From the IMG/VR virus record IMGVR_UViG_3300018410_000011, positions 1-55,797 of that record: 55,797 nucleotides of DNA; one strand, written 5' to 3'. A model generated the notes under the pieces. That model was not told the DNA's origin. It saw only the letters and a list, made by a program, of their open reading frames with translations, and did not search any database. Positions 4,111 through 35,892 of this stretch are shown here, piece after piece (position 1 is the first letter of the stretch; each line of letters begins with the position of its first letter). The DNA is from a virus. Lineage: Duplodnaviria; Caudoviricetes. Made by a program: the position numbers and the translations under genes.

Positions 4111-4875
4111 ATGATAACAGAAATTAGTACATATAGATTAGTTAAAGATTTAATTCTTTTAGAAAATAAATTAAATGAAGGATTAATAATGACTCATGAT
4201 ATACATGATAGTAAAAAAATTATTGAAAATTTTATTTCAGCTTATTTTTGGTATAATATAGAAATTGATATAAATAAATTTAAAATATTGTTATCTGATG
4301 GAAAATTCAATACCAATTCATATTTAGAATTTTTAATATTAATAAATAATTTAGGATATTTTATATCAAATATAAAAGCAAAAAATAAAAATAATATTAC
4401 AAATACAATTAATCCTAATGATTTTAAAAATAATTATTTGAATGATAAGTTTTTACAAAATATAATTGAATATAATTTTGTTATAGAACCAAAATTTGAT
4501 ACAACACATAAATTAAAAACAAATATTTTATATCATGTAACAGAAACAAGATATTTATATAATATATTAAAAAATTGGTTAGTTGCTAAATCAAAAAATA
4601 CATTATCTGAATATCCAGAAAGAATATATTTTGTTTATAATATAGAAGACGCTAATACATATATAAAATCTAAAAAGTTTTATTATTTAATGAATCAAAA
4701 AAATGCTAAACAACCAATTAAATCAAATTTTAAAGAAATTAAATATGTTATTTTAAAAATAGAATTACCAGAAAATAACAATTTAATATTGTATGAAGAC
4801 CCTAATTTTGTTGGTAAAGGAATATATACATATGAAAATATTTCACCAAAATTTATAAATATAGAAAACAAATAA
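4111..4875 (+). CDS. leader-variant protein with putative ADP-ribosyltransferase-like C-domain
   Basis: MITEISTY...KLNEGL; LYHVTE..I.KNWL..YPERIYF; paralogue of 32443..33216. Confidence 0.55.
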   Translation: MITEISTYRLVKDLILLENKLNEGLIMTHDIHDSKKIIENFISAYFWYNIEIDINKFKILLSDGKFNTNSYLEFLILINNLGYFISNIKAKNKNNITNTINPNDFKNNYLNDKFLQNIIEYNFVIEPKFDTTHKLKTNILYHVTETRYLYNILKNWLVAKSKNTLSEYPERIYFVYNIEDANTYIKSKKFYYLMNQKNAKQPIKSNFKEIKYVILKIELPENNNLILYEDPNFVGKGIYTYENISPKFINIENK

Positions 4876-4878
4876 AAT

Positions 4879-5253
4879 ATGACAATATATAAATTAATTG
4901 AAAATTTAATTATTTTAGAAAATAAATTAAATAATAATTTAATAGAAAAACAAGATATAAATTTAACATTAGACGCTATAATTAACACATTAGATTTTAA
5001 TGATTTTTGTAGGTGTGAAATAAAAGATAATAAAATATATACAACAATAGTAAATTATGATAATAATATAAATGTAGAAAAAATAATATATTTTCTATTA
5101 TCTATAACAAATTTAGCATATTGTGTATCACACCTAACAATATATAATAAACGTAATAAACCATATACATTAGACATTGATATTTTTAAAAATAATTATT
5201 TATCGGATTATGAATTAGAAAAAATAAATAAATTTGATTTAATAATTGAATAA
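4879..5253 (+). CDS. truncated paralogue of the N-terminal half of 4111..4875
   Basis: LIILENKLN, ITNLAYCVS and FKNNYL align with the upstream gene. Confidence 0.55.
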   Translation: MTIYKLIENLIILENKLNNNLIEKQDINLTLDAIINTLDFNDFCRCEIKDNKIYTTIVNYDNNINVEKIIYFLLSITNLAYCVSHLTIYNKRNKPYTLDIDIFKNNYLSDYELEKINKFDLIIE

Positions 5254-5290
5254 ATTTATAAATATTGAAAATAATTAATATATTTGCTAT

Positions 5291-6817
5291 ATGAAAGTAT
5301 TAAGAACACATCAACAAGAAGCATTAAATGCTATTTCTAAAACAATTGAAGGTATTATACATTTACCAACAGGAACAGGAAAAACATTTATTCAAGCAAC
5401 TGCAATTGTTGATAATTTAGAAAATAATAGAGTATTTGTTGTATTAAGTCCTAGAATTTTATTAACAAATCAATTATTTTCTGAAGTAAAAGAAATTTTA
5501 CAAGTCAATAAAAAAGATTGTCAATACCTCATCGTACATTCAGGAAAAGCAGAAGATAAATCTGATTTCAAATGGACCGAAAATATGCCTTATAGAGAAG
5601 TTAAATCAACAACTTCTGTTAAAGATATTAAATCAGAATATGAAAGATCACAAAGAGAAAATGTACCTTTAATTATATTCGGTACTTATGATAGTTCTGA
5701 TAGAATCATGTTAGCTAATATTCCTGTTTATATGCTATTATGTGATGAAGCTCATTATTTAGTTACCGAAGAATTTTCATGGTTACGTTATGAAAAATAT
5801 ACTGATGGTAGAAAACAATTTAATGCAGATAGAAAATATTATTTCACCGCAACTTTAAAAGAAACAGCATCAGATGAAGGTTTAGGTATGAATAATAAAA
5901 AAGAATTTGGTCCTATTCTATATTCTAAAACACCACTTGATATGGTCGTTGCTGGTGAAATTTTAAGACCTAGAATGCATCTAGTCGATGTAAGTTCTGA
6001 TAATGTAGTTTCTGAATTAGATATGGACGTAAATGCTATATTAGAATCATTCACAGAACATAGAGTTCATTGTAAAATTGGTGCTAAATTATTAGTCGTT
6101 ACTAAAGGTTCAGAACACCTAAATCAAATTGTAAACCACCAAAAAATACAAGAAGAATTAGACACTAGACCGAATTTAAGAATCTTTGATATTACCTCAG
6201 CACATAAACCAAGAATCAATGGAACAATTGTAAAACGTGAAGAATTTCTTTCCGAATTACAATCAATGTCCGATTCAGATGAAGCTATTATATTACACGT
6301 TCGTATATTAACAGAAGGTATAGATGTTCCAGGTATTACTGGTGTTATGATTATGAATGATTTAACACTATCAAATTTTTTACAAACTTTAGGACGTTCT
6401 ACAAGATTATATAAAAAAGATAGAGAACGATTATATAATAATATTATTAAATATGATGAACTAAATAAATTTGTTAAATCGTTTGCTTGGATCATTATAC
6501 CAATTTATGGTACTATAGGAAACGATTTAAGAACTAATATTAAGTCTATGATATATTCACTTAGATCATATGGATTCAATGCAACAGAAGACGTCGTTAT
6601 TAAACAAAGTAAAGGTAAAGCAGTTCCTGTTCCATTATCAGGTTTAAATGTAATAGATACAAGAGGTTTAGCATATAGAGAAACATTCTTAGATATTGTT
6701 CATGATGTAGAAGAACAAGAAATTGCAGAACATCTAGAATTACAAAATTTTAAATTAGACGAAGAAATAAAAAATGAAAGTCTTGACAAAACTATTGCAA
6801 GATTTGCAAATATATAA
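5291..6817 (+). CDS. SF2 DEAH helicase/ATPase (restriction Res-subunit-like)
   Basis: LRTHQ, PTGTGKT, CDEAH, FTAT, ILTEGIDVP, QTLGRSTR. Confidence 0.9.
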   Translation: MKVLRTHQQEALNAISKTIEGIIHLPTGTGKTFIQATAIVDNLENNRVFVVLSPRILLTNQLFSEVKEILQVNKKDCQYLIVHSGKAEDKSDFKWTENMPYREVKSTTSVKDIKSEYERSQRENVPLIIFGTYDSSDRIMLANIPVYMLLCDEAHYLVTEEFSWLRYEKYTDGRKQFNADRKYYFTATLKETASDEGLGMNNKKEFGPILYSKTPLDMVVAGEILRPRMHLVDVSSDNVVSELDMDVNAILESFTEHRVHCKIGAKLLVVTKGSEHLNQIVNHQKIQEELDTRPNLRIFDITSAHKPRINGTIVKREEFLSELQSMSDSDEAIILHVRILTEGIDVPGITGVMIMNDLTLSNFLQTLGRSTRLYKKDRERLYNNIIKYDELNKFVKSFAWIIIPIYGTIGNDLRTNIKSMIYSLRSYGFNATEDVVIKQSKGKAVPVPLSGLNVIDTRGLAYRETFLDIVHDVEEQEIAEHLELQNFKLDEEIKNESLDKTIARFANI

Positions 6818-6820
6818 ATT

Positions 6821-7408
6821 ATGAAAGATGAACAATTTAATATTTTAATAAAAACATTATCTGATAATTCTATGAATTATGGTGATTATATTCAATTAAT
6901 ATTAGTTATTATAACATTAATAATAGGTTTTCAATCTATATTTAATATTTATGATAAATATATTTTACCGTTTTTTAATAAAATAAAAAACAAATATAAT
7001 AAGATAAAAAAATATTTTATTGATAAAAAAAATAATAAATTAACATTTAAAAAATTACAAAAATTACAAAATTTAATAAAAGATTATCCATATTATTATA
7101 ATAAATTTATTATATTATGTTATAATAATAACAATAATTGTTTTTATGATTTAACATATAAAAACTATAAAAAATATAGAAATATTTATATTTGTATAGA
7201 TCCACAAAACTATATAAAATATTATAAATCAACACAAAGTGTTTGTTTAGATATTACAATAGTAAATAAATTATATTATCATACAGATTATGAAAATTTT
7301 GATTTAGTATATGATATTCAAAATCTTATTAAAAGAGATAATAATTTTGATTTGAAAAAAACACATCGGGTATCTAAAACACCACCATGTGAAATAATAG
7401 AGTTTTAA
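6821..7408 (+). CDS. hypothetical membrane-anchored protein
   Basis: One hydrophobic segment, IQLILVIITLIIGF. Confidence 0.55.
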   Translation: MKDEQFNILIKTLSDNSMNYGDYIQLILVIITLIIGFQSIFNIYDKYILPFFNKIKNKYNKIKKYFIDKKNNKLTFKKLQKLQNLIKDYPYYYNKFIILCYNNNNNCFYDLTYKNYKKYRNIYICIDPQNYIKYYKSTQSVCLDITIVNKLYYHTDYENFDLVYDIQNLIKRDNNFDLKKTHRVSKTPPCEIIEF

Positions 7409-7411
7409 ATA

Positions 7412-8621
7412 ATGAATAAAGAAGAAATAGTAAAATCATTAGAAAAGATTTATAGTGAATCAACAGATTCACATAATATTTATACACCACTTGAATTGTG
7501 TGAAGAAATGATTAATTCATTAACTGATTTGAATGGTGATATTTTAGTTATATCTAATCTTGAATTTTTAATTGTTTTAAAACAAAAAGATGTTGATATG
7601 AATAATGTTCATTATTCAACTTCTTGTGATATTAAAAAACAAGTTGCAATTAGTTTAGGTGTTAATATAAACAATATTCATCTTTTAGAATATAACAATA
7701 AAGAAATCAATTTAGGAATAGAAGAAATGAAGTTTGATGTAATTGTTGCGAACCCACCATATCAAAAAGGTTTACATTTAAAATTTTTAGATAAATGTAT
7801 TGATATGAAACATGATGATGGTGAAATTATATTTGTCCATCCTGCAGAATGGTTAGTACAAAAAAGACAAACGTCCAGAACTAAATTACATGATATATTA
7901 AAATCTAAAATAAATGGTGCAAATATAACATTTATAGATAATCCATGGAATAATGTTGCATTATGGGTTCCGCTTGTTATAACCAATATAAATAATTCTT
8001 GTATTTATAATTTTAATGAAAAACGAAAATTTGTAAATAAAGAATATTCATTAAAATTAAAATCATTATATGATATATCATTTTTTGGTGTATTAACACA
8101 TATGCAATCAGTATATAATAAAATATATAATAAAGCAAAAGAAATATCATTTAAAGATATTGAAAAACAAAATTTAAATTTAAACAAATATATAACTTTA
8201 CATAGGTTTACTGGGTCTAATGTAGATTTAATAAATAAAACATCTTCTTTAGCTATGTTTAATAATATAGAAATATAAAATTTATGATAGATTTTTATTA
8301 CATAGAATAGATTCTAAACATTTTAATGTATTTAATGAACCACAATATGCAAGAACAGGGAATCAAAGATTATTTATGTCTTTTAATACTGAAATAGAAG
8401 CTCAAAATTGCTTGAATTTTTTAGGAAAATCAAAAGTATTTGTAGCATATTTTTCATATATAAAAATTGACCAACATGCTGCAGATACGCTATTATCTTG
8501 GATTCCTTGGTTAGATTGGACACAAGAATGGACAGATGATAAATTAATTGAATTTTTTAATTTAACAGATGAAGAAGTTCAAAATATAGAAGAAATAATA
8601 AATATAATTACAATAAAATAA
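7412..8621 (+). CDS. amino-methyltransferase catalytic/TRD part (NPPY), interrupted by a +1 frameshift near 8272
   Basis: FDVIVANPPY present; SAM-binding motif I degenerate. The +1 frame is open from about 8274 into ORF 8376..8621, whose end (WIPWLDWTQEWTDDKLIEFFNLTDEE) is a typical phage MTase C-terminus. Confidence 0.7.
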
Positions 8622-8625
8622 AAAT

Positions 8626-9225
8626 ATGAATAACTACGAATATAAAATAATATTATCTAAAAATACAGATAATACATTAAATATTAAAAAACAAAACAAT
8701 TTAAATAAAGATAATTTAATATTAATAAATTATCGATTTGAAAAAATGAATATAAAAGATATTGATAAAAATACATATATTTATAAAAACAATGATGAAA
8801 TTGTACAATATAATGATGACGATTTTAATAATTTAGAAATAACCAATAATTATCTATTTTGTTTAATAGATATAAATAATAATATTTCAATATGTGATGA
8901 ATCATTAAAGTTTTGGCATATAGGAAATTTAGATATAAATAATAAAATTAACGAATATTTAATTTATGATGATTTAGTTAAATCAAAATTTGGTTTATAT
9001 ACAAATAATACATTACCAAACAATTCTATTTTTTCAATTATTGAAAAAGAAAAACTATATTATTTACAAATAATTAAAACTAAATATAAAAATATTAAAA
9101 AAATTGGATTTATTATAATTAATAATAATGATATAATTAACAATAATGACATTTATGCTAATTATAATGGTATTAATACCATTATAAACCCAGTAAATTC
9201 AACAATTGATGTTAAATGGATATAG
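8626..9225 (+). CDS. hypothetical protein
   Basis: 199-aa Asn/Ile-rich ORF in the operon. Confidence 0.5.
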   Translation: MNNYEYKIILSKNTDNTLNIKKQNNLNKDNLILINYRFEKMNIKDIDKNTYIYKNNDEIVQYNDDDFNNLEITNNYLFCLIDINNNISICDESLKFWHIGNLDINNKINEYLIYDDLVKSKFGLYTNNTLPNNSIFSIIEKEKLYYLQIIKTKYKNIKKIGFIIINNNDIINNNDIYANYNGINTIINPVNSTIDVKWI

Positions 9226-9674
9226 TTAAGTATTTAAAGGAACAGATAAAGAATGAGTCAACTTATTCTAAGGATAAATCTAATGCACATGGTGAGGTTT
9301 TTACGCCGCCATCATTAATTAAGGAAATGTTAGGATCTTTAGATGGAGATGCATTTACTGATCCTAATAAAACATTTCTTGATCCATGTAGTGGGAAAGG
9401 TAATTTTCCTGTATTTATTATACAAGCATTGATGAAAGGATTAGAAACACATTTTCCTAAATCTAAACAACGATATAGGCATATTATTGAGAATATGTTA
9501 TATATGTGTGAATTTCAAAAAGAATCAGCAATATTTATTAATGATTTATTTGGTATGGATGGTGAATTTAAAGTAAATTTATATGTTGGTGATACATTAA
9601 AATTACCAGATGATTTCTTTGATTTATCATATGAAGATAGAAAAATTAAATATCCTGAAAATGTTATTGCATAA
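9216..9674 (+). CDS. DNA methyltransferase N-terminal SAM-binding part
   Basis: HGEVFTPPSLIKEML and FLDPCSGKGNF (motif I); the gene ends before any NPPY. Confidence 0.8.
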   Translation: MDIVKYLKEQIKNESTYSKDKSNAHGEVFTPPSLIKEMLGSLDGDAFTDPNKTFLDPCSGKGNFPVFIIQALMKGLETHFPKSKQRYRHIIENMLYMCEFQKESAIFINDLFGMDGEFKVNLYVGDTLKLPDDFFDLSYEDRKIKYPENVIA

Positions 9675-9704
9675 AAAAAGTCACAATTAATTGTGACTTT
9701 TTTT
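9673..9704. terminator. bidirectional intrinsic terminator
   Basis: A7-GTCACAA-ttaa-TTGTGAC-T7 between convergent genes. Confidence 0.8.
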
Positions 9705-9717
9705 ATATTATATTTAT

Positions 9718-9993
9718 TTAATATCTACCTGATGATTTTAAACCTTTCCAACCATCTTTTACTGATTTAAATACATCATTTAATTTCTTTTCATTATTTT
9801 TAAGTGCTTCGAATGATGTGATAGTAAGTAATTCATTTACTTGAACTTCTAAACCATCATCAAAATATGAAGATGGTAATTCACCTTCTCTACTTAATAC
9901 TAATCTTAATTTACTAAAATAAAATCTTACAAAAGATTTAAATTTTTTAATTAATTTTTGATTTTCTGGAGTTTTATAATTTAAATTTGACAT
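9718..9993 (-). CDS. hypothetical protein
   Basis: 91-aa ORF; TATATTTG upstream (10036..10043, minus strand). Confidence 0.65.
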   Translation of the reverse strand: MSNLNYKTPENQKLIKKFKSFVRFYFSKLRLVLSREGELPSSYFDDGLEVQVNELLTITSFEALKNNEKKLNDVFKSVKDGWKGLKSSGRY

Positions 9994-10107
9994 ATCTTTT
10001 AAGTTTTAAATTTTGTTATTATTAATTGAACAATACAAATATAACAATAATATATGAATCGAGGTACTTTTTATTAAATATATTATGTTATTTAATATAT
10101 AATTTAT

Positions 10108-10645
10108 ATGATAACAACAATTAATGAATACAAATTAATTAATGAAAAATTTGTAAATTTATGGAATAAAGAAGATATGAAGTTATATATTGATGAAGTA
10201 TTTTCTTTAATGATTAAAGCATACGAATCTATTGGTGGTTTTTTAACAGCAAAATCGGCTGATGAATTATGTGAAAAAACTGATTTAATTAAAATAATAA
10301 AAAGAAATGGAAAGATTAGTGCTGTTTCTTGTTATAAAGTATCTTCTTTCGGAAGAAAAATTAATATGTGGTGCGACTAATGCTACAGAACAAGGTAAAA
10401 AAGATTTGTTATCTATTATAAAAGAAGATATAACTCAAATAAAAAGAAATTCTTATTCTGAAGTTAGTGGTAAATTAGAACACATATATTTAAAATATGG
10501 TGCGACTGTTGTACAAAATTATTTGGTATCTGATATAATAGGAAAAGATATAATTATTGATAAAACAGATGATTTTCATTATTATAGAGAAATTAAAGGA
10601 CAATTACATAGAAAATTATTAGTAGGAAATATTAATAAGTCATAA
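10108..10645 (+). CDS. MITTINEYK-leader protein, interrupted by a +1 frameshift near 10356-10360
   Basis: Removing one A from GGAAGAAAAATTA joins FGRK to LICGATN, giving one protein of about 178 aa. Confidence 0.65.
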
Positions 10646-10670: not shown

Positions 10671-10752
10671 AATAATATTTAGTTATACAATTAATTTTTA
10701 TGTGAAAATTATTTAATATATAATAAAAAATAATAAAATCACTAAATAATTT

Positions 10753-10971
10753 ATGATAACAACTATTAATGAATTTAAACAATTTATGAATGAAAATAAA
10801 ATAACATTACAACAAGATAGCGCTGATAAAATAAAAATAACGTTAGATGAAAATATTATTTTAACACATGCAAAAAAAATGTTTAAAAAAATAAAAACAA
10901 TGAAAGATGTTTATGGTTTAGGTTCTATTGATTATAATAAATTAATTAAACATTTATCAAAAATTAATTAA
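10753..10971 (+). CDS. small MITTINEFK-leader protein
   Basis: MITTINEFKQFMNEN; TAATATATA at 10714. Confidence 0.75.
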   Translation: MITTINEFKQFMNENKITLQQDSADKIKITLDENIILTHAKKMFKKIKTMKDVYGLGSIDYNKLIKHLSKIN

Positions 10972-18598: not shown

Positions 18599-19165
18599 AT
18601 GATAACTGAATTTAAAATATTTGAGAATAACAGAGCAGATTTATATCATGCAATAAAAACAAAATACGCTAATATAGCATTAGAAAAAAACGAATTAGAT
18701 ATTTATTCTTATCAACGATATTGGGCTAATGGAAAAAGATATAAAGATAATGAACCAGAATATAAAAATTCATTTTTTTATCGTGGTTTATCATTAACTA
18801 GAGATATAAATTATGCAAAAAATTGGGCTAGTGTTATTTTAGTTTTTGATACAAATAAATTAAAAGAAAAATATAAAATTGTTCCTTATAACTGGGGCTT
18901 TAGTATAGGTAATATAACTAATCAAAATATAAAAAAAGAAAAAGAAGAATTTTTAATTGTATCATATAATAAAAATCATTTAACAGATAAAGAATTTATT
19001 AATATGTATGGTAAATCTGGTGGATCTATAAAAAATCTTTCTTATTATTTAAAAGGTTTTTATATAAATAAATCAACATATAATATTTATACTGAAAATG
19101 ATACAAAAATATATGAACCATATGAAAAATTAAAAAAAAATAAATTATATTTAGGACTACTATGA
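18599..19165 (+). CDS. MITEFK-leader protein, putative ADP-ribosyltransferase-like fold
   Basis: MITEFKIFEN; LYHA...GLSLTRD...ILVFD...EKEEF. Confidence 0.55.
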   Translation: MITEFKIFENNRADLYHAIKTKYANIALEKNELDIYSYQRYWANGKRYKDNEPEYKNSFFYRGLSLTRDINYAKNWASVILVFDTNKLKEKYKIVPYNWGFSIGNITNQNIKKEKEEFLIVSYNKNHLTDKEFINMYGKSGGSIKNLSYYLKGFYINKSTYNIYTENDTKIYEPYEKLKKNKLYLGLL

Positions 19166-20526
19166 TAACTGAATTTAAAAAATATTTACTAAATGAATCC
19201 ACAAAATTTAAAGAAAGTGAATATGATTTAGTAATAGTGGATGTACAAGAAGGATTTAAGAAATTTTTTGGTGAAGAGTATTTATTAGCATTAGAAGAAT
19301 ATTGTGAAAATTTTACAAGAGTTTTTCAAATATTTGATACTAATAATACAAATCACAGTGATTATATATTTCCAAATCAAACATTAGAAATAGAAAAAAC
19401 GTATGGTGGTCAATTAGATGAAGAAGATATAGATTATTTATTTACTGAACCTATGCGAGATTATGTTAGATCTAAAATGAATAATTTACAAGAACGTGAC
19501 ATTTTCGAAACAATAAATGGAGATTATTATGTATATGTTGATGCCGCACATGAATGGTTTTTTTGTACAAAAGAAATGGCAGATTTATTTAAAAAATTTA
19601 AATCTGAAAATAGAAAAATTATGTTAGTTGGTGGTGCTGGTGGATCTAAAAAAAATCCTAAAGGTGAATGTTTACGAGATATTTATGTTACATTAAAAGC
19701 ATTTGGAGTTGATACAAGATATAATTTAGATTATGTTTATTCAGCAGATGGAAATATGTTTAAATCAAATATTAAAGGCGTTCCGTTAACAGACGAACAA
19801 CGAAATAAAGTAAAATCTACTAATGAAAATTACAATAATGATGATATAATTAATTTAAAAACTTTTGATTTTACTACTTTATTTAATACTATAAATAAAG
19901 AGTGTTTTAATTCTTCTTTATCTATAATTCCTATCAAATTTTCTACTTCTAAATCATACACTGCACAATTTGTTAGACCACGTTATCCTAAATATGATGG
20001 AACTGATAAAGAATATTTTGTTTTTTCTACTTTATTTGAAATGACATATAAAAAATTAAAAAATGTGTTAGCGCATGAAATGATACATTATTATTTGTAT
20101 GCTATTATGGATAGAGATAAATCACATCATGGATATTCTTTTCAAAATAAAATGAATTCTATTAATAATTTAAATTTAGGATATATCATAACATTAAAAG
20201 ATGATGAACCAAGTAATGTATCAGAAGAAAATTTAAATAAAAAGTTACAAAAAAAGAAATTTATAACATATAAAATAAAAGGACAAAACGGATATTCTTT
20301 AATAAACGAAATTACATTTATTAAAGATAAAGCTAATTTTTTAAGTAAAAGAACAATGTATGGTGTTACAGATATAAAAGTGTATGATACATCATCAGCA
20401 CATTATAAAGTATTATCTGGATCTACAACAAAAATAAAATTATCAATAATAAAACCACAATATCAATATTTAATAGACAATATTATTAATGATACAAAAA
20501 ATACAAAATTTTTATATAATTTATGA
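19162..20526 (+). CDS. MITEFK-leader protein: isochorismatase-like domain plus SprT-like zinc metalloprotease
   Basis: LVIVDVQ and LVGG...ECL; then LAHEMIHY...HHGYSF. Confidence 0.7.
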   Translation: MITEFKKYLLNESTKFKESEYDLVIVDVQEGFKKFFGEEYLLALEEYCENFTRVFQIFDTNNTNHSDYIFPNQTLEIEKTYGGQLDEEDIDYLFTEPMRDYVRSKMNNLQERDIFETINGDYYVYVDAAHEWFFCTKEMADLFKKFKSENRKIMLVGGAGGSKKNPKGECLRDIYVTLKAFGVDTRYNLDYVYSADGNMFKSNIKGVPLTDEQRNKVKSTNENYNNDDIINLKTFDFTTLFNTINKECFNSSLSIIPIKFSTSKSYTAQFVRPRYPKYDGTDKEYFVFSTLFEMTYKKLKNVLAHEMIHYYLYAIMDRDKSHHGYSFQNKMNSINNLNLGYIITLKDDEPSNVSEENLNKKLQKKKFITYKIKGQNGYSLINEITFIKDKANFLSKRTMYGVTDIKVYDTSSAHYKVLSGSTTKIKLSIIKPQYQYLIDNIINDTKNTKFLYNL

Positions 20527-21107
20527 TAACGACGATAAATGAATTTAAATTAAATATATCAGAATCCGTTCAAAAATATGATTTAGATGCTATATTAAAT
20601 ATAGCATTAACATATAAAGATGATGAGTATTATTTTTATAAATATGCTGATGAAACTAATGATGATATAGATAATATAGATGACGAAAGTGATGAATATA
20701 TATCATGGTACAAAGAAGAAATTGAATATATAATAGAAAATATATATTTTTTAATGAAAAGTAATTATTCTTCACCTGGTTTAGTATATAGAAAAATAAC
20801 TGTTAATGAAAATTGGTTTAATAATTTAAAATCTGGTGATAATTTAGGAATATATTGGACATATGATGAAAACTCAGCAGAATCACATTGGTCAAAAGAA
20901 GATATTGAAGTTTTATTAATAGCTGAAATTGATTCATCAAATATAGATTATAAAAATACATATTTAGCACATATAATACCTTATACTGGCGAAGACGAAA
21001 AAGAAATAAGATTATTAAAAAATACAGAAATTAATATTAAATCTATAATTATAAAAGATGAAGAACAAGATTTATCTAAATTTGAAAATACAATATTTAA
21101 AGCTTAA
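20523..21107 (+). CDS. MITTINEFK-leader protein, putative ADP-ribosyltransferase-like fold
   Basis: LVYRKI...LGIYWT...EDEKEIRL. Confidence 0.55.
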   Translation: MITTINEFKLNISESVQKYDLDAILNIALTYKDDEYYFYKYADETNDDIDNIDDESDEYISWYKEEIEYIIENIYFLMKSNYSSPGLVYRKITVNENWFNNLKSGDNLGIYWTYDENSAESHWSKEDIEVLLIAEIDSSNIDYKNTYLAHIIPYTGEDEKEIRLLKNTEINIKSIIIKDEEQDLSKFENTIFKA

Positions 21108-21748
21108 TGATAACAACGATAAATGAATTTATGATTAATGAAACATATTCTAAATTAGAATTTGAAAATATACATTTAGATTATCATAATCAACAAAACT
21201 GTTATAAAATGAATGCTAAATTAAATGGTGAAATTGTAGCATATTGTGATTATACAGAGTATAATGGTATTTATCAAATAAGTATGATAGAATCATTAGT
21301 TAAAGGCCAAGGATATGGTAAAGCTATAATGATGGAATTAGCTAGATTATATGGATATAAGAATATAGAACGAAATAATTTAACTCCTGATGGTCAAAAA
21401 TTACGTAATAAAGTTGATAATGAATTAGGTTTTGATTACACCGAGTATAAAAAATCATTAAATAAACATTTATCTAATGAAGAATCAATAGATAAAATAA
21501 GAATTAAATATCCTTTATGTGCTGATTTTATGTCTGAAATTATATTATTTGATTATAGTGACACATGGTTAAAATGGAAAAATAATAATAAAATAAAAAA
21601 TATAGAACAAGAATTACAAAATACAGATATAGATATAAATGATTTATCAGATATAACAGAATGGATAAAAAATTCAGCGACAAATAATAATTCTACTACA
21701 GAATCTGTTCCAGATTATATTTTAGAATATATTCAAAAATTATCATAA
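21107..21748 (+). CDS. MITTINEF-leader protein with GNAT-like domain
   Basis: ISMIESLVKGQGYGKAIM resembles the acetyl-CoA-binding motif A. Confidence 0.6.
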   Translation: MITTINEFMINETYSKLEFENIHLDYHNQQNCYKMNAKLNGEIVAYCDYTEYNGIYQISMIESLVKGQGYGKAIMMELARLYGYKNIERNNLTPDGQKLRNKVDNELGFDYTEYKKSLNKHLSNEESIDKIRIKYPLCADFMSEIILFDYSDTWLKWKNNNKIKNIEQELQNTDIDINDLSDITEWIKNSATNNNSTTESVPDYILEYIQKLS

Positions 21749-29900: not shown

Positions 29901-31031
29901 ATTATATCCACCAGCTAATTCTGCTAATTCTTCACCATAATTATTCATTATAGAAAAATATGTTAATGGTAATGATAATAAATTATTATTATCATATAAA
30001 ATATTTGATTCTATAGAAAATATATTAGATGCTAAATATAAATAACAATCAACTAATTGTGTTGATACGGTATTACCTATATCAAATGTTAAAGTATTTG
30101 TAGAACGATCTATATTAGTAATTATAAATTGTTGTTGGTTTAATAAATTTAAAGATGTACTTTTTTCTTTAAATATTACACTATCACCTATTTTAATAAA
30201 ATATGGAACATAAGGTATAGATACAGTATTAGTACTATTATCAAAATTAGATTCACCATCACTAATTAAAATATTAGATGTTTTTAATTGTATATTTATT
30301 TTGATTTTATCACCATCTGATGGAGTATAAAATAAGTCTGGAATGTTATAAGAATATCTATTTTTAGTATTTGTTTTTTTAGATATAGTATAAATACCAT
30401 CATTATCAGTATTTGATATTAAAGATATTTTTTTATTTTCATAAATATTTGTTAATGAATCATTCCATATCGGTTCATTATATTGTTGAACTTCAATAAC
30501 ATCTACTGGTATAATTTTAGCATTAGTTATATTAAAATTTGGTAATGCTGTAAAATTATTAGTACTTGTATAAACTAATATTTTATCTTTTTTAACATCT
30601 AATATTTTAAATAATTGGTAATTAGTATTTATAGTGTCGAAATCAGTATTATGATATGAATCTAATCCAGTAAAATAACACCACATTCCTGTATAAAAAT
30701 ATTTATGAATATTTTCTGATGATACCCATTTAGTATTATAATTAGAATCTATGATAGTACTTTCTATATTAGTTATAATAAACTCTATAGCATCATATTT
30801 AGGAAAAAAATTAAATCCATTAGTATTAAATACTTGAAATTTATTCAATGATGTATTAAATGTATTTTGTGTTCCTTCTATTTTTTCAAATGTATAAATT
30901 CCTTGTGTTTTAAATGTATCTGTTGAATTTTTATCAAAAAATAATGATGTATAATACATTTTATTATTCTCATCATAATTCATATTTAATTGATGTCCTT
31001 CTTTATTAAAGAATATTAAGTTTTCTTCCAT
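26949..31031 (-). CDS. large virion structural protein (baseplate wedge-like)
   Basis: 1360 aa, beta-rich and acidic; YLASYKSVIYAINFFGY and IIPIGTKI motifs; late motif. Confidence 0.55.
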   Translation of the reverse strand: MEENLIFFNKEGHQLNMNYDENNKMYYTSLFFDKNSTDTFKTQGIYTFEKIEGTQNTFNTSLNKFQVFNTNGFNFFPKYDAIEFIITNIESTIIDSNYNTKWVSSENIHKYFYTGMWCYFTGLDSYHNTDFDTINTNYQLFKILDVKKDKILVYTSTNNFTALPNFNITNAKIIPVDVIEVQQYNEPIWNDSLTNIYENKKISLISNTDNDGIYTISKKTNTKNRYSYNIPDLFYTPSDGDKIKINIQLKTSNILISDGESNFDNSTNTVSIPYVPYFIKIGDSVIFKEKSTSLNLLNQQQFIITNIDRSTNTLTFDIGNTVSTQLVDCYLYLASNIFSIESNILYDNNNLLSLPLTYFSIMNNYGEELAELAGGYNLEYNKEDNSLDLISIFTDNYSTISLSIININNVITDYTTSINTTIYDVTPLYVQEPLKELELLKKDSNLYTRIIEFYNIDNFGIKININSKNYYVPFNTDIDTTINDFVSTYQTELFNLGINISSTLNVLTLTNTYPNIPVYLNMLFGDGTIYDIKYLDINITNIKSQLLININEVDYIVPYNTSDAQTILDWYNTWYEELKLLGIIISVSNTIIFINILDPERQLDIFYNIGYIPKSGDLSILETLHAINYSGSVISGNEIICAPGLYNFLDYYSVGQKISINGSTYISQNKSFNIIGLTENIISLSYQGPFWNISLLDLDIESDFFIRYPKSGLDGINVQTKYKWTWKDTQINDMFLYDFSGTQLQPYTEYFPNYNGITPLCGENGEYDITLNYKPNTDINEISNPYKQQTIFDTITFDIPYINSNITNNQLEPDPMQIFIGYNTLNEGWTNARLYLEKIEDVVFSLTTTSVGSSYDDLFIFKDNYVEIQFSTNTIDFISLGFKTGQIIQFSSNDTSSDGQLLGKLSNNGIDYTIKEIYLNKLVFEENVIEETSVKSVVKNTLPFYDINGNLLYVNRLLNVNISVLPKQIAYFDLYGETEGVDIRHEININNKNLNILKLQDYFIFKEVDINENGIDWVLMNRKRKELIEIYPEIFNYLASYKSVIYAINFFGYNDLTFTEYFQNIDPENSKFGKLFNLELLNLLTKDSTEYLYSNLAYENYRNQGFRKTNLFSLNYKITDDNGNFINAYSLEEVKVKLLGLKRWLTENIIPIGTKILDINGKYKIQNNFILEHESYMTKNFRTEEYSDAISFHVTGYLQPISQGSNLYNISVQFISTNTNSEDIWFDYVIKTFNLSKWNNITYLPETILFHNNNIWINNVTSSPTDEPGINNIWEITTLDKLQNTQILRSSKNDLDPVSFSINQNIDPYFIVEVFWHSGYSNTKKMTKSYIIPNSNDNNINNYIINLGDYNDDYNDDFYI

Positions 31032-31103
31032 GAATTATATATTATATCTATATAATTCTGTTTAATTATTTAAACTAATAGTATAATTTATTATAAAATA
31101 TAT

Positions 31104-31652
31104 ATGGAAAATAAAACTCTACATATAAATTTATATGCTGGACCAGGTACAGGAAAATCAACAATGGCAGCTGATATATTTTCAAAATTAAAATATAAAA
31201 ATATTAATGCTGAATTAATAACAGAATATGTTAAAGAATTAGTTTGGGAAGAATCATTTAAAAAAATAACTAATCAAATATATTTATTTGCTAAACAATT
31301 AAAAAAACATTCTACTTTAGAAAATAAAGTAGATGTATTAATTACCGATTCAGCATTACCATTAGGATTAATTTATGATAATGGTAATACTAAGTATTTA
31401 AAAGAATTAATTCTTTCTGAATTTAATAAATTTGATAATTTAAATATTTTTTTAAAAAGAACTAAAAAATATAATCCTAATGGTCGAATGCAAACGGAAT
31501 TAGAAGCAATAGAAAAGGATAAAGAAATATTATCGTTTTTAGAAGAAAATAATATAGAATATATAACTATAGAAGCAACAAATACTGCTTATATAGAAAT
31601 ATTAAATATTATTAAAAAAAGAAGACCTAATTTATGGAACAACATACAGTAG
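31104..31652 (+). CDS. P-loop nucleotide kinase/ATPase (NadR/AAA_28-like)
   Basis: INLYAGPGTGKST, ITDSAL, YNPNGRMQT. Confidence 0.8.
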   Translation: MENKTLHINLYAGPGTGKSTMAADIFSKLKYKNINAELITEYVKELVWEESFKKITNQIYLFAKQLKKHSTLENKVDVLITDSALPLGLIYDNGNTKYLKELILSEFNKFDNLNIFLKRTKKYNPNGRMQTELEAIEKDKEILSFLEENNIEYITIEATNTAYIEILNIIKKRRPNLWNNIQ

Positions 31653-32440
31653 AAAGTATAAAAGAAAAACTAAAAGTATATAATGATAAAGATTTTAAAT
31701 TTGATCCTGAAAAACATGTATACACTTATAATGGTAATGTAATGAGAGGAACAACCGGATTTTTACATAATTTTGTAAAACCATTTGATTCCGATTATTG
31801 GTCAAAGAAAAAAGCAGAACAGGCTGGAATAACACAAGAAGAAATGTTAGCACAATGGGATGCAAAACGTGATAGATCATGTGACTTAGGACATATGGTA
31901 CACGATTATATAGAACATTTTTATGAAAATAATTCAACTAAATTAACAGAAGATGAAGAAGCTAATTTAAGAATTGCTAAATTTCATACTATTTATGAAA
32001 ATAAATTAAAAAACTTAATTTCAGTAGGATCAGAAATTAAAGTTTTCTCAAAAAAATGGAATTTAGCTGGAACAATAGATAAGATATATTTATATGAGAA
32101 TTCTATTATATTAGGTGATTGGAAAACTAATAAAGAAATCAAAACAGATAAATCATTTTGTTTCGGTAAATTATTAACACCATTTAATAATTACAAAGAT
32201 AATGAATTAAATAAATATTCTTTACAATTATCTATTTATGCCTTATTATTAGAAGAAGCTGGAATATATGTAGATTATTGTTTTATTTGTCATATACCAG
32301 AAAAAGGTGATTCTGAAATTTATAAATTAAAAGATTTTAGAGCTGAACTTAGAGCATACTTTACACATCAATTTTTAATGACTGAAGTTGTGGATATAAA
32401 TAAAGAAAAAGAATTAGTAAAAATGGAGGTAATATGGTAA
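31634..32440 (+). CDS. PD-(D/E)xK exonuclease
   Basis: G.MVHDYIE, SE, AGTID, GDWKT, YSLQLSIY. Confidence 0.85.
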   Translation: MEQHTVESIKEKLKVYNDKDFKFDPEKHVYTYNGNVMRGTTGFLHNFVKPFDSDYWSKKKAEQAGITQEEMLAQWDAKRDRSCDLGHMVHDYIEHFYENNSTKLTEDEEANLRIAKFHTIYENKLKNLISVGSEIKVFSKKWNLAGTIDKIYLYENSIILGDWKTNKEIKTDKSFCFGKLLTPFNNYKDNELNKYSLQLSIYALLLEEAGIYVDYCFICHIPEKGDSEIYKLKDFRAELRAYFTHQFLMTEVVDINKEKELVKMEVIW

Positions 32441-32442
32441 AT

Positions 32443-33216
32443 ATGATAACAGATATAAATTTATTTAGAATATATGAAAATTTTAAAGACTCAGAAAATA
32501 AATTAAATGAAGGATTAATTAAATCCTATCCTATAGATAAATCATTTGATATTTTAATTAATAAAACAGATCCTGTTTTAGATAATGTAAAAAGAGAATC
32601 TATGATACAAAATAATAAAATTATGTTATGTTGTAATAAACTAAATATTAGTGAATTTTTAGATTTATTAACTACAATAAATAACTTAGGTTATTTTATA
32701 TCAACTATTAAACCATATCAAAATACACCATTTAAATTTTTACAATTTAATGAGTTTAAAATAAAATTTTTTAATGAAAATAGTTTAAACAAATTCACAT
32801 CTTATGATATAATAATAGAAGCAAAGTTTGATATAATATACAAAACTAGTAGTAATAAATTATATCATGTAACTGAAGATATTTATGTTAATAAAATTTT
32901 TAAAAATGGTTTAATTGTTAAATCATATAATACATTATTAGATTATCCTGAAAGAATTTATTTAACAGATGATATACAACATAGTAAATTATTTATAGAT
33001 AAAAAGAAATTTTATTATAATAATTATCAAGATAAAAATATAGAAAGAAGAATAGGTAAAGATCAATATAGAAAAAAATCAGATAATGTTTATGTTATAC
33101 TTGAAATAGATAATTCTAATAAAGATATTATTTTGTATTTAGATCCAAATATGTCTAATGCATATTTTACTTTAAATACAATACCACCAAACAAAATTAA
33201 AAAATATGAAGAATAA
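32443..33216 (+). CDS. MITDINLF-leader protein with putative ADP-ribosyltransferase-like C-domain
   Basis: KLNEGL; LYHVTE..I.KNGL..YPERIYL..DPN; paralogue of 4111..4875. Confidence 0.6.
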   Translation: MITDINLFRIYENFKDSENKLNEGLIKSYPIDKSFDILINKTDPVLDNVKRESMIQNNKIMLCCNKLNISEFLDLLTTINNLGYFISTIKPYQNTPFKFLQFNEFKIKFFNENSLNKFTSYDIIIEAKFDIIYKTSSNKLYHVTEDIYVNKIFKNGLIVKSYNTLLDYPERIYLTDDIQHSKLFIDKKKFYYNNYQDKNIERRIGKDQYRKKSDNVYVILEIDNSNKDIILYLDPNMSNAYFTLNTIPPNKIKKYEE

Positions 33217-33219
33217 TAA

Positions 33220-33765
33220 ATGAATCGAGTAATAATAATAGAAGGTGTACGAAATGTAGGAAAATCATTCTTAATATCTAAAATAGATAAACCTGAAAAA
33301 TATAAATTTATGTTTTCAGATTATTTTGTAAATTCATTTATATATGATTTTGATGAAACTACAATTGAATGTAATGATAAAAAAGAATTACACTATTTTT
33401 TATTAGGAACTGATGTATCTTTTCTAAATTTAATAAAAGAAAAAATAATAAATAAAGATTTAATCATAGATCGTGGATTTATTTCAACATTAGTTTTTGG
33501 TATTCAAGCAAATAGAATTACTTATAAACAAGCATTAAATCAAGGAAAATATATTTTAGACAAATACGGAAATAATATTAAAATAATTTTAGTATCATCA
33601 GAATTTAAAGAAGATAATAGAAATAAAGACATGTGGTCTTTTTATAATCAAAAAGAAACTAATGATTTATATTTAAAATTATTAAAAGATTTAAATATAG
33701 AATACGTAATTTTTAATAATGAATTTAAAGAAAAAAATATAGAAGAATTTAGAAATATGTTTTAA
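33220..33765 (+). CDS. dNMP (thymidylate-kinase-like) kinase
   Basis: IIIEGVRNVGKS, IIDRGFIS. Confidence 0.7.
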   Translation: MNRVIIIEGVRNVGKSFLISKIDKPEKYKFMFSDYFVNSFIYDFDETTIECNDKKELHYFLLGTDVSFLNLIKEKIINKDLIIDRGFISTLVFGIQANRITYKQALNQGKYILDKYGNNIKIILVSSEFKEDNRNKDMWSFYNQKETNDLYLKLLKDLNIEYVIFNNEFKEKNIEEFRNMF

Positions 33766-33809
33766 TATTAAAAAAAAATGTTATATTTACACAACTAAAA
33801 TAACAATAT

Positions 33810-34505
33810 ATGAAAAGTATTAAAGAAATTGTTTTAAATTCTAATTATTCATTTGATTTTGATAATAGAAATAAAGCAGTTAAAAGTATTAATAATGTAT
33901 TAAATAATAGTAATATTGAAATTGTTTTAGCAAAAAAAGGATATAGTTGGAAATTAACAACTGGAATGTCTGTTAATTTAATTATTAAATTAAATGGTAA
34001 AAGAATAGGATTTGATTGTAAAGATATTACACCATATCGTATTCTTACAAATTTAGGATTTTTTCTTAAAAAAGATTGGGTTAAAGAACACATTTATTCT
34101 GAAGTTCAAACTAAATATAAATGTAGTAAATGTAATGGTACAGGATATTTACCAATGTTTGCACATTATGCTAATGGTGTTTGTTTTGATTGTATGGGTA
34201 TAGGTATTAGAGGAAAATTAAGTGTTAATAATATACAAGATCAAAAAAATCTAAAAGGACACCCATATTTAAGATCATTTTATGTTAGTAAAGAATATTC
34301 TACATATTTTCCTAATGATGTTAAAAAACTTAAACCAATTTCTTATATAAATCACCCTACAGCAGAAACATTTTTAGGAGAAAATGATACAAATTATTTT
34401 ATATATCAACCAGTTTGTCAAGCTAACTCATGGTATAGTATTCCTAAAAATGATTTTGATAAATTTAAAACTGAATGGAATAAATTAAAATATGATTTTA
34501 TTTAA
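33810..34505 (+). CDS. zinc-finger (CxxCxGxG twice) protein
   Basis: CSKCNGTG...GVCFDCMGIG. Confidence 0.7.
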   Translation: MKSIKEIVLNSNYSFDFDNRNKAVKSINNVLNNSNIEIVLAKKGYSWKLTTGMSVNLIIKLNGKRIGFDCKDITPYRILTNLGFFLKKDWVKEHIYSEVQTKYKCSKCNGTGYLPMFAHYANGVCFDCMGIGIRGKLSVNNIQDQKNLKGHPYLRSFYVSKEYSTYFPNDVKKLKPISYINHPTAETFLGENDTNYFIYQPVCQANSWYSIPKNDFDKFKTEWNKLKYDFI

Positions 34506-34524
34506 TTTTTTTTTTTTCTAGTAT

Positions 34525-34722
34525 TTAAAAATTATCATCATCTTCATCAAATTCTTCATCTTTGTCTGAATTAGCTAACATGATAGTATGATAAGTCATA
34601 TTTTCAATAGCATCTTCTAATTCATCACAAGTTCTAAGATAATTTATAATTTCATCAAGAGTAAATGATGGATTATAATTCTCGTTAATATTTTGTTTAA
34701 AAGTATTTATATTTGTTATCAT
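34525..34722 (-). CDS. small MITNINTFK-leader protein
   Basis: Start at 34722, MITNINTFKQNINEN; TAATATATA at 34737..34745. Confidence 0.7.
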   Translation of the reverse strand: MITNINTFKQNINENYNPSFTLDEIINYLRTCDELEDAIENMTYHTIMLANSDKDEEFDEDDDNF

Positions 34723-34759
34723 AATTATTTTATTTTTATATATTAAATAAAATATGATT

Positions 34760-35269
34760 TTATTTAATTTCATATTTATCTTTTAAATAATTATATTCTG
34801 GATTAGATTTTAAAATAAATAAATCACCATTAGTATTAGTTTTAATGTGATCTATATCATTTTCCAATTTTAATTTTTGTGCCATTTTAGGAACTTCATT
34901 TTTATTTAATGTTCTTCCAGGTGTTGTATACATATGACCAAATTCATGAATAAATTTTAATGTTATTTTATATCCTAATCCTTGATTTTGTAATGTATTT
35001 GATATATGTCGATGAGGATGATATAATTCATCATTAATAATTTGAATATCAAAAATTATTCCTTTATTTATTTCATTATCTGTTGGTAATTTTATACCTA
35101 AATGTATAATAGAATTATTATCATCACCTAATTCTATTAATTCAATATCTTTCCAATTAATATTTTTATAATCTTTATATTCTACTGTCTCATCAGGTAA
35201 TCTTAAACCAGGAAATAAATGAAATTCTTCATTTAATTTATTTTTAAATTCATTAATTGTCGTTATCAT
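34760..35269 (-). CDS. MITTINEFK-leader protein, GNAT-like
   Basis: KLNEE; TLQNQGLGYKI motif. Confidence 0.6.
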   Translation of the reverse strand: MITTINEFKNKLNEEFHLFPGLRLPDETVEYKDYKNINWKDIELIELGDDNNSIIHLGIKLPTDNEINKGIIFDIQIINDELYHPHRHISNTLQNQGLGYKITLKFIHEFGHMYTTPGRTLNKNEVPKMAQKLKLENDIDHIKTNTNGDLFILKSNPEYNYLKDKYEIK

Positions 35270-35892
35270 TCAATAGTTCTCTCTTTTATATTTAATATTC
35301 CTAAATAATCCATTTTTAAATCTTTTAATGACCATAACTCATTACTAATATCAGCGTCAGGTACGCAACTATAAAATTTCTTTTTATATTTTTCAGGTAA
35401 ATCAGATGGTCGTTTAACATTTAGTTTATTAAATATATTTAACTTAAGTGATTTTCTTATTTCTTTTATTTCATCTTTTTCTAATGATGAAATCCAAACA
35501 TTTAAATCAAATTTTACACCGTATTTATTATTAATTGAATTAGGACATTTTTGTTGTTGTTGTTTTATATTAATAATATCAATATCATCTGTCTTATCAT
35601 TATATAAATCAACACCATATACATAAAATAATCTAGTACTGTCATCCACACCCTTTAAACAATTATCGATAGAATTTGATAATGAAACTCTAGCTGTAAA
35701 ATCATCTTCTATAACTGAATTATTGTTTTGGTACGGGTTATTTGGTACTTTTGCTGTAAAAATAAAAGTACCATCATTATTTAATAATTTTTTATAAGAT
35801 AAATGAAAATATTTATACTCAGATTCTGCTTTATCTATAGTATAAATATTTTCATTTAATTTATTTCTAAATTCATTAATTGTCGTTATCAT
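35266..35892 (-). CDS. MITTINEFR-leader protein, possible ADP-ribosyltransferase-like fold
   Basis: YFHLS...EDDFTARVSLSNSI.NCL...VPDA..SNELW. Confidence 0.55.
   Translation of the reverse strand: MITTINEFRNKLNENIYTIDKAESEYKYFHLSYKKLLNNDGTFIFTAKVPNNPYQNNNSVIEDDFTARVSLSNSIDNCLKGVDDSTRLFYVYGVDLYNDKTDDIDIINIKQQQQKCPNSINNKYGVKFDLNVWISSLEKDEIKEIRKSLKLNIFNKLNVKRPSDLPEKYKKKFYSCVPDADISNELWSLKDLKMDYLGILNIKERTIE

Follow-up and report, generated by a model that had tools for sequence, protein, structure and literature searches.

Do the proteins that share one N-terminal leader in an uncultured phage make up a set of host-modifying enzymes, and could such a set travel in the virus particle? The question is raised by a 55,797-nucleotide viral record (IMG/VR IMGVR_UViG_3300018410_000011; Duplodnaviria, Caudoviricetes), analysed over its full length and called here the window, in which about 20 open reading frames (ORFs, named by their lower coordinate) begin with a MITTINEF-type leader (MIT-T-I-N-E-F/Y and variants; the union of three counts). 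The original prediction, made from the sequence, had placed behind this leader five ADP-ribosyltransferase (ART)-like domains, two GNAT-like domains and an SprT protease, and had likened them to the injected T4 enzyme Alt. The observation is real; the interpretation is of the right kind, although it counts too many domains. Structure prediction points to two ART-fold families that Pfam does not recognise, 4111/32443 and 18599, and the models place both nearest to the His-type Tpt1/KptA-DarT-PARP enzymes within the ART superfamily. By analogy with T4, the huge T4-like phage from which the window derives probably carries a tag-addressed kit of host-modifying enzymes in its particle.

ART-like domains behind the leader

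The motifs on which the original prediction drew are all present in the translations of the ORFs concerned (4111: LYHVT, ILKNWL, YPERIY; 32443: LYHVT, YPERIY; 18599: LYH, GLSLTRD, EKEE; 20523: YR, GIYWT, EKE; 35266: FHLS, RVSLS, ELW; 21107: KGQGYG; 34760: QNQGLG; 19162: HEMIH), and are more than chance strings, because their key residues are invariant in alignments of homologues. The structure prediction proposed as a check was run on 4111 and 18599, and in both cases the nearest solved folds, by Foldseek and by VIA search, are ART folds. The proposed count of five ART-like proteins thus stands for 4111, 32443 and 18599 at the level of the fold, probably extends to 20523, and is unsupported for 35266, on which no method run gave an ART signal.

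The C-terminal domain of 4111 is predicted to have an ART fold, on a structure model and two independent fold searches. Foldseek comparison of its AlphaFold2 model (predicted local distance difference test (pLDDT) 82.9, predicted template-modelling score (pTM) 0.55) with the PDB gave Tpt1/KptA at every one of ranks 1-19 (best E 7.9e-4), with root-mean-square deviations of 10-13 Å over 250-column alignments. The VIA search aligned the Tpt1 C-lobe alone (model residues 129-253 to chain residues 85-180), and the best VIA matches of the N-domain were ferredoxin-like (S6-), EpsM- and PilO-like folds, not the Tpt1 RNA lobe. The model's BFVD matches include phage proteins that are uncharacterised (best E 1e-11) and viral proteins annotated as Tpt1/KptA, PARP-domain or DarT, and the ESM-atlas leads agree (Tox-ART-HYD1 0.94, PARP 0.92, Tpt1 with a template-modelling (TM) score of 0.61).

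At E<=0.001 the 4111 family has 41 homologues, all lacking a precomputed Pfam domain; 29 of these, 32443 included, were aligned (A1). Ten columns are invariant (G82, Y141, H142, T144, L157, R171, Y173, D230, T240, I244), 32443 retains every one of them, and the junction E23-G24-L25-I26 is conserved at >=90%. The hallmark of ARTs is a first-strand His or Arg at the NAD site together with a Tyr or Ser on the second strand; the NAD-site features found in the 4111 family are H142 (on strand 139-145) together with R171 and Y173 (at strand 172-175), invariant in all 29 sequences. Individual Pfam scans of the A1 members gave sub-threshold matches to PARP (6/29, best E 7.5e-4), PTS_2-RNA (4/29, best E 0.041) and Tox-ART-HYD1 (2/29), the remaining 15 Pfam families being matched by one member each. 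Through its full-length identity to 4111 (Table 1), 32443 is predicted to share the fold. The ORF directly behind 4111, 4879, matches the leader and N-domain of both by BLASTP (E 1.9e-21 over 124 residues for 4111, E 5e-14 for 32443).

The ART fold is likewise predicted for the single domain of 18599, with somewhat less certainty than for 4111. Its model (pLDDT 86.0, pTM 0.81) is of low confidence at residues 1-9 (the leader) and in the loop 100-112, and the best Foldseek rows are DarT1 (top, E 0.082), Tpt1/KptA and PARP2; DarT also occupies four of the top seven VIA rows. The family, with 36 proteins at E<=0.001 including the window's own, carries no Pfam domain. In its alignment (A2: the window protein and 35 homologues), 23 columns are invariant, including L15, H17, Q39, R40, G63, S65, R68, D69, P96, N98, W99, G100, K112, E114, E116, E117 and F118. 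None of the 36 members matches any Pfam ART family, and the PDB profile search was also empty. In the model, E114-x-E116-E117 opens the strand after the disordered loop, presumably the position at which ARTs carry their catalytic Glu.

Whether these folds would act as transferases bears on a separate reading, in which they are structural modules without activity, NAD+ glycohydrolases, or non-catalytic decoys that bind NAD or ADP-ribose and so counter defences based on NAD (Thoeris, for example). The structural matches of 4111 do include RES-type enzymes and NADases with an ART fold, and no catalytic Glu was located in that protein, whose sole invariant acidic residue, D230, lies in a loop just past strand 227-229. 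That the NAD-site His and several polar residues never vary within either family nevertheless argues for catalysis, as does the invariant E114-x-E116-E117 of 18599 if it is correctly placed, and a non-transferase role is considered distinctly unlikely.

ORF 20523 probably adds an R-S-ExE-type ART to the two kinds above. The triad of the R-S-E clade consists of R, S-T-S and E-x-E, and in its sequence 20523 shows a complete R...[ST]...E-x-E pattern. A word-indexed search gave one real homologue, with another in the related viral contig G001, and an alignment-based scan of viral contigs gave nothing beyond the known G001 locus. From the 91 relatives that a metagenome scan with the leader-trimmed domain yielded, 80 loci were retained, which came down to 72 ORFs once identical translations had been removed. 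The alignment (A9, 56 sequences) adds L008 and 54 of these ORFs to the window protein; left out were L082 (frame change), L089 (open 3' end), L027, L037, L038 and L039 (no ATG start), L023 and L049 (short pieces open at the 5' end), and the near-duplicates or pieces L018, L020, L025, L047, L054, L058, L064, L070, L071 and L083. Invariant in A9 are R90, L108, G109, Y111, W112 and E161, and conserved at >=90% are V94, I110, A119, W123, T146, E159, I162 and L164; the three closest sequences have S or T at position 113. The atlas leads are ADPrib_exo_Tox (20% of the cluster, 0.91), DRAT (0.90) and Mod_ADP_RT (0.89), and the structural leads, based on the atlas's own model, are PF01129 ART and PARP clusters (TM 0.51-0.56). 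In 17 long relatives the domain stands at the C-terminus of multidomain proteins, where its partners include parts of CCA-adding enzymes/poly(A) polymerases (6), 2H/Acb1 phosphoesterases (3), GNAT (2), ankyrin repeats (1) and ART-PolyVal (L029). Membership of 20523 itself in ART-PolyVal was rejected, the Pfam match in L029 lying at residues 260-397 and the 20523-like domain at about 492-598.

The domain of 35266 is widespread, with 141 proteins at E<=0.001 (83 at 1e-10) in an exhaustive representative search; viral-contig scans gave no relative for it or for 21107. An alignment of the window protein with 53 single-domain members (A3, 54 sequences) has V177 invariant besides the residues given in Table 1, and the H, S and E residues on which the original prediction drew are conserved. 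Pfam names nothing on this domain in the 35 members scanned, and the PHROGs that match it list the function as unknown. Fusion partners of 35266-like domains are NUDIX (2), GNAT (2) and 2H/LigT (1), and one fusion is a protein of 3111 residues with DNA ligase, LigD phosphoesterase and NT5C. Together with 34760, 35266 is best described as an enzyme-like domain of an unnamed family.

Several results weigh against the ART assignments. None of the five proposed ORFs reaches the threshold of a Pfam ART family alone, profile-profile comparison among the candidate families (A1, A2, A3 and A9) gave probabilities below 1% throughout, and PDB profile searches with A2, A3, A4, A5, A6 and A9 returned no ART or GNAT chain. 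The PDB matches of the A1 profile are non-significant (DarT1 at E 0.28, five Tpt1/KptA sequences at E 1-1.4); all fall on LYHVT...I..NGL, which aligns with LYHGT in Tpt1 and LFHFT in DarT1 and sets H142 against the His of each motif. For 18599, Foldseek gave no match at E<=0.001, and the best VIA Z, 8.6, only slightly exceeds the values of 7-8 usual for models that have no clear match. No Pfam ART model matches the 20523 domain in the 56 A9 members or in the window, and its PDB profile search was empty; for T4 Alt in particular (ADPrib_exo_Tox, PF03496), the window was searched at E<=10 and the 56 A9 members at E<=0.1, both with no match. An ART fold for 35266 is unsupported, with no signal from Pfam, NCBIfam or the PDB profile search and an hhalign probability below 1% against A1 and A2. 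Finally, the catalytic acidic residue lacks a firm position in the models of 4111 and 18599.

The likeness to Tpt1/KptA also allows a reading in which 4111/32443, and perhaps 18599, are KptA/Tpt1-type RNA-repair or nucleic-acid-end enzymes that restore tRNAs cut by host anticodon nucleases in the infected cell and are not injected. The nearest solved and viral structures are those of Tpt1/KptA, excerpts of two sources place the KptA homologues of jumbo phages within tRNA repair (PMC7824862, PMC9503650), and 20523-like and 35266-like domains are fused elsewhere to the CCA-adding, 2H/LigT, NUDIX and ligase partners typical of RNA repair. The matches to PTS_2-RNA, by contrast, always fall below the Pfam threshold, and in the VIA search only the C-terminal NAD lobe of Tpt1 aligns, the N-domain giving no match to the Tpt1 RNA lobe. 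Two paralogues, an N-domain-only copy and a common leader would moreover be needless for a repair enzyme, and no RNA ligase was seen in the window, which covers about 14% of the genome. A role confined to RNA repair is thus judged rather unlikely.

SprT-like and GNAT candidates

Host-modifying enzyme types do stand behind the common leader, as had been proposed, with ART folds and SprT in the window and ART-PolyVal, GNAT and SprT in relatives. The SprT call on 19162 is confirmed at the level of sequence profiles: the protein, in which HEMIH is present, matches the Pfam SprT-like family (PF10263) at residues 240-344 with E 7.5e-11 and 42.3 bits against a cut-off of 25.6, and a weak SprT match to the same protein (E 0.0017) was the only one in an NCBIfam scan of 22 proteins. 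Leader-bearing SprT proteins that lack the extra N-domain occur in the relatives G001 and G002.

The N-domain of 19162 (DLVIVDVQEGF..., window 19162-19780, plus strand) is a mobile module of about 205 residues. It forms a gene of its own in G003 (58% identity, E 2e-85) and G004, and in G001 it is fused to a 21107-like domain (E 1e-30). Its identification as an isochorismatase was rejected, a targeted Pfam model having given no match.

Of the two proposed GNAT domains, that of 21107 is borderline and that of 34760 gave no signal. ORF 21107 probably has a minimal GNAT core, with a borderline score for Acetyltransf_1 (PF00583) of 18.9 bits (E 0.002), or 20.0 bits (E 3e-5) in a window-only search, against a cut-off of 20.7; the match spans profile positions 15-87. 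K66, G69, Y70 and G71 are invariant in the four sequences of its family, and none of its three homologues matches GNAT. In an hhalign comparison with the bona fide leader-GNAT of G001, motif A was the sole aligned stretch, with a probability of 1.7%. For 34760, the GNAT call is unsupported and also counts against the original proposal: no GNAT was found in Pfam (E<=1), in NCBIfam, with a targeted PF00583 search (E<=10) or by hhalign. Its homologues occur only in G003 and G004 (52% identity), and in this family of three sequences, two of them near-identical, the QxxGxG-like loop alone is conserved (Q94, G97, L98 and G99 invariant). A Rosetta-stone link of 34760 and 21107 to the GNAT halves of the 35266-like fusions P0151 and P0181 was tried and rejected for want of similarity, and a tblastn search of both ORFs against 50,697 phage records gave no match.

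The leader and head packaging

The window, a stand-alone viral record estimated to be about 14% complete and with a G+C content of about 20% throughout, appears from its gene content to be a fragment of a huge T4-related phage, because it carries T4-type genes (gp32, the gp25 baseplate wedge and the N-terminal ATPase part of the large terminase subunit (TerL), by Pfam scan), because its closest gp32 homologues among annotated phages belong to uncultured phages of 630-735 kb (<=46% identity), and because its relatives found as viral contigs are themselves large (G001, 123 kb; G004, 314 kb and about 80% complete). Pfam also recognises DenV, thymidylate synthase, dCMP deaminase and a helicase.

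The leader was counted in three ways: 16 ORFs with MIT(T/N/D/E)I(N)E(F/Y)-type starts were picked by eye; a regular expression over the 77 ORFs of >=80 residues matched 15, bringing in 10108, 12854(-) and, from an internal start, 34525(-); and a degenerate DNA pattern written for the strict leader gave 12 in the window against 0 in a reversed control, adding a small ORF at 10753. Its copies vary at synonymous positions (ACA/ACG/ACT, ATA/ATT, AAT/AAC), so that the peptide is the conserved entity and the one on which selection acts. Past the leader the tagged proteins are unrelated by BLASTP, with the exception of the paralogues 4111, 32443 and 4879. A profile match between alignments A4 and A5 was set aside, since it rests on leader sequence only. 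Relatives carry the identical leader on domains that exceed the Pfam cut-offs, namely ART-PolyVal (E 1.5e-10), GNAT (E 6e-8) and SprT. The first of these is a leader-bearing protein of 273 residues in G002 (L002, 6696-7514, plus strand); a targeted ART-PolyVal model gave no match within the window. In G003 and G004 (L003 and L004, 2947-4029, plus strand), the 34760 homologue continues in frame into a second MITTIDEF leader and a further domain, 361 residues in total, and a leader internal to a polypeptide would fit a polyprotein cut by a protease.

The leader recalls the capsid targeting sequence (CTS) of T4, which is described in excerpted sources as an N-terminal propeptide of 10-20 residues on the internal proteins (IPs) and Alt that suffices for head targeting and is removed by gp21 (PMC5694885, PMC9026906, PMC3012670). 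A possible cleavage site, [LI]-x-E, lies within the first 20 residues of 15/15 regex-matched leader ORFs and of 17/62 other ORFs. Related junctions recur elsewhere, with phi-x-E-[ASGM]-[SYG] ahead of the domain in 20/39 short 20523 homologues from other lineages and ...EE(A/Q/S)SRA immediately before LYH in 18599 homologues; cargo domains of other lineages thus have different N-terminal extensions that end in the same type of junction.

The leader genes also share an upstream motif with virion genes. TTAATATATAA occurs in 11 copies in the window against 3.7 expected (0/100 shuffles reach 11), all of them 5-30 nucleotides upstream of an ATG on the same strand. Behind it stand eight leader genes, TerL, the tail-type ORF 25452 (PHROG E ~1e-6) and ORF 21794. 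Because the motif is common to leader genes, the terminase gene and an ORF of the tail category, it suggests that the leader genes are co-expressed with virion genes, and it is a candidate promoter or initiation element common to both. The T4 late promoter TATAAATA was rejected as the common signal, being found upstream of only 3/20 leader genes. The ART gene 4111 lies directly downstream of the terminase gene, a context that an excerpt of PMC9503650 treats as suggestive of head packaging, and excerpts of the same source predict that head-packaged ARTs are common in myoviruses (PMC9503650). A candidate for the leader-removing enzyme, from its PHROG matches, is ORF 16946 (Table 1), and weak Peptidase_S77 matches are present in G001 (26.8 bits, or 27.1 with neighbouring stretches) and G004 (24.9 bits).

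By analogy with the T4 CTS and Alt, we infer packaging, cleavage, injection and pre-early action for the tagged proteins, an inference strengthened by the [LI]-x-E sites of the leader, the upstream motif shared with terminase and tail genes, and the protease-like ORF. The leader would act like a CTS, with the cargo made together with virion genes and loaded into the prohead core; a head protease would remove the tag at the [LI]-x-E site; and the mature enzymes would reach the host together with the DNA, where they would alter host macromolecules or disarm defences before phage gene expression, by way of NAD+ (ARTs), acetyl-CoA (GNAT) and proteolysis (SprT).

This scheme has to be set against a number of opposing points. 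Packaging, cleavage and injection are read from the T4 analogy. The [LI]-x-E pattern is frequent in this AT-rich proteome, occurring in the first 20 residues of 27% of the other ORFs. The position of TTAATATATAA, only 5-30 nucleotides from the ATG, may mean that it is not a promoter. ORF 16946 is short for a head-maturation protease (147 residues) and has PHROG support alone, with no Pfam match and no relevant PDB match; Pfam Peptidase_S77 has no match in the window, and with a cut-off of 27 the match in G001 is at the cut-off and that in G004 below it.

The leader could accordingly be something other than a packaging signal (a translation-initiation or regulatory element, a tag for another compartment or a remnant of cassette duplication), with the enzymes remaining cytoplasmic. 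This would suit a packaging route proposed from analogy, a window without a Pfam-recognisable T4 gp21 protease, and the great diversity of the proteins behind the tag, some of just 65-90 residues. It fits poorly with the synonymous differences, which point to selection on the peptide, with the presence of [LI]-x-E in every tag, with the different extensions but same junction type of cargo domains in other lineages, with the upstream motif common to leader, terminase and tail-type genes, and with the close parallel to the T4 CTS in the excerpted accounts (PMC9026906, PMC5694885). On balance, such a role for the leader seems unlikely, and delivery of the tagged enzymes in the head is the reading preferred here.

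The models resemble Tpt1/KptA and DarT, and the best-known enzymes on the Tpt1/KptA, DarT and PARP side of the superfamily act on nucleic acids; under head delivery, the modelled ARTs may therefore act on the ends or bases of RNA or DNA and not on RNA polymerase, the target of T4 Alt. A bolder version, in which the head holds a library of about 20 or more tagged enzymes that takes in three or more unrelated ART-fold families missing from Pfam, two of which are Tpt1/KptA-DarT-like, and in which infection opens with ADP-ribosylation of host DNA or RNA by injected enzymes (for example of tRNA or RNA ends, or of single-stranded DNA at replication forks), is given little credence; if true, it would be a mode of takeover or counter-defence without description for any phage.

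Other genes of the window are of interest in their own right. The large-terminase ORF 3278-4090 (plus strand) encodes 270 residues, corresponding to the N-terminal ATPase part, and leader genes follow directly after it; no nuclease half was seen within the window, which may mean a split or interrupted gene. The canonical ThyA and dCMP deaminase genes are accompanied by a second, divergent thymidylate-synthase-like gene (E 4e-15), and two thymidylate-synthase-type genes with a dCMP deaminase could indicate a modified-pyrimidine pathway. Four paralogues are made of tandem repeats of about 23 residues (W..IS.YQKLSE.FIREF.DKV), with a conserved domain (YECHDDYFIAYKGIR...) at the C-terminus of at least two of the proteins (2-943 and 48036-49727); the repeat protein at 2-940, the sole paralogue scanned, had no Pfam match. 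A protein of 383 residues (37044-38195, minus strand) has a nucleoside 2-deoxyribosyltransferase-like N-terminal domain (E 4.5e-7) and adjoins the minus-strand array of leader genes at 34760-37031.

Table 1. Coordinates of the features discussed, in the window unless a locus is named
Feature	Coordinates	Strand	Description or evidence
ORF 4111, ART-fold protein	4111..4875	+	leader (MITEISTY...KLNE-GLI), alpha/beta N-domain ~30-127, predicted C-terminal ART-fold domain ~129-254
ORF 32443, full-length 4111 paralogue	32443..33216	+	leader, N-domain, predicted ART-fold domain; 40% identity, 256 columns, E 8.6e-50
ORF 4879, paralogue of the 4111/32443 leader and N-domain	4879..5253	+	no ART domain; BLASTP
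ORF 18599	18599..19165	+	leader (MITEFKIFE-NN) and single predicted ART-fold domain
ORF 20523	20523..21107	+	leader, acidic linker, C-terminal domain ~85-194 with R90, S/T113, E159-x-E161
ORF 35266	35266..35892	-	leader and widespread unnamed domain; invariant H30, E62, D63, R68, D179, E185
ORF 19162	19162..20526	+	leader, mobile N-domain ~1-205, SprT-like zinc metallopeptidase 240-344 (HEMIH)
Relative of the 19162 N-domain	L005 2121-3089	-	
Relative of the 19162 N-domain	L007 904-2097	+	
ORF 21107	21107..21748	+	leader, possible minimal GNAT core 14-81 (KGQGYG), conserved C-terminal region
ORF 34760	34760..35269	-	leader and domain of unnamed family
TerL N-terminal ATPase gene	3278..4090	+	Terminase_6N E 7.3e-5; phrog_5989 terminase large subunit E 1.1e-22
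ORF 16946, head-maturation-protease-like, 147 residues	16946..17389	+	phrog_207 E 3.7e-12; phrog_3014 E 4.9e-5
TTAATATATAA copies	3249..3259 (+), 10092, 10713, 21763; 2320(-), 13124(-), 15859(-), 26929(-), 34736(-), 38839(-), 48039(-)		
Thymidylate-synthase-like / ThyA / dCMP deaminase group	39577-40284 (+), 45634-46068 (-), 46115-47173 (-)		
Tandem-repeat paralogues	2-943, 993-1673, 48036-49727 (+), 55014-55796 (-)		

Comparison with known systems

Among characterised enzymes, Tpt1/KptA (PF01885, PTS_2-RNA) supplies the top Foldseek matches of 4111 in the PDB. The N-terminal RNA-binding lobe of Tpt1 holds part of the catalytic Arg/His tetrad; this lobe appears to be absent or replaced in 4111, and 18599 is single-domain. 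Neither family belongs to the Tpt1 profile, with 0/29 A1 members above threshold and 0/36 A2 members matching. DarT, the single-stranded DNA thymidine ADP-ribosyltransferase of the DarTG toxin system, is the top Foldseek match of 18599 and the best PDB profile match of the 4111 family (a non-significant E 0.28), but the scores are weak, there is no Pfam DarT match, and the window showed no macrodomain partner of the DarG kind.

The polyvalent proteins and MuF- or portal-fused effectors of phages, reported by Iyer et al. in 2017 and 2022, have the same repertoire of ART, GNAT, SprT/zincin, 2H and NUDIX domains and are predicted to be delivered with DNA, and multidomain proteins of this sort also contain 20523-like and 35266-like domains. 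In the window, by contrast, the domains are encoded singly in small genes, every one with a leader, and are neither joined in one polypeptide nor fused to MuF or portal. In excerpts of PMC9503650 and PMC7824862, jumbo phages and polyvalent proteins are likewise reported to contain ART, GNAT and SprT-like domains, with delivery from the head predicted. A literature search gave no paper that joins the capsid targeting sequence with huge phages, and for ADP-ribosyltransferases and jumbo phages it gave general works only; in both cases supplements may list such proteins.

Should the tag direct loading into the head, the proteins that an uncultured huge phage delivers along with its DNA could be read from sequence, and here they would include ART-fold enzymes of families missed by profile libraries. 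The modelled ART families and the unnamed 20523-like and 35266-like domains are small, expressible candidates for new NAD-dependent chemistry of phage-host conflict.

The closest parallel is the T4 CTS system (IPI-III, Alt and gp21), in which a short N-terminal peptide likewise precedes unrelated proteins and ends at a hydrophobic-x-Glu site, according to excerpts of its descriptions (PMC3012670, PMC5694885, PMC9026906). The genome represented by the window is also T4-like (gp32, gp25, T4-type TerL), and at least one cargo class is ART in both. The cargo here is mostly enzyme-sized and of several classes (at least two to three ART-fold families, SprT and possibly GNAT). The likeness to Alt put forward in the original prediction did not survive the modelling of 4111 and 18599: Alt is of the R-S-E type, whereas the modelled ARTs appear His-type and Tpt1/DarT-like, nearer the Tpt1/KptA, DarT and PARP side than the R-S-E clade. 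T4 has only a handful of CTS-bearing proteins, whereas about 20 tagged ORFs are present here in about 14% of a genome. Because CTS-addressed cargo in T4-like phages and head-packaged ARTs are already in print, the present finding extends a known principle and does not introduce a new one.

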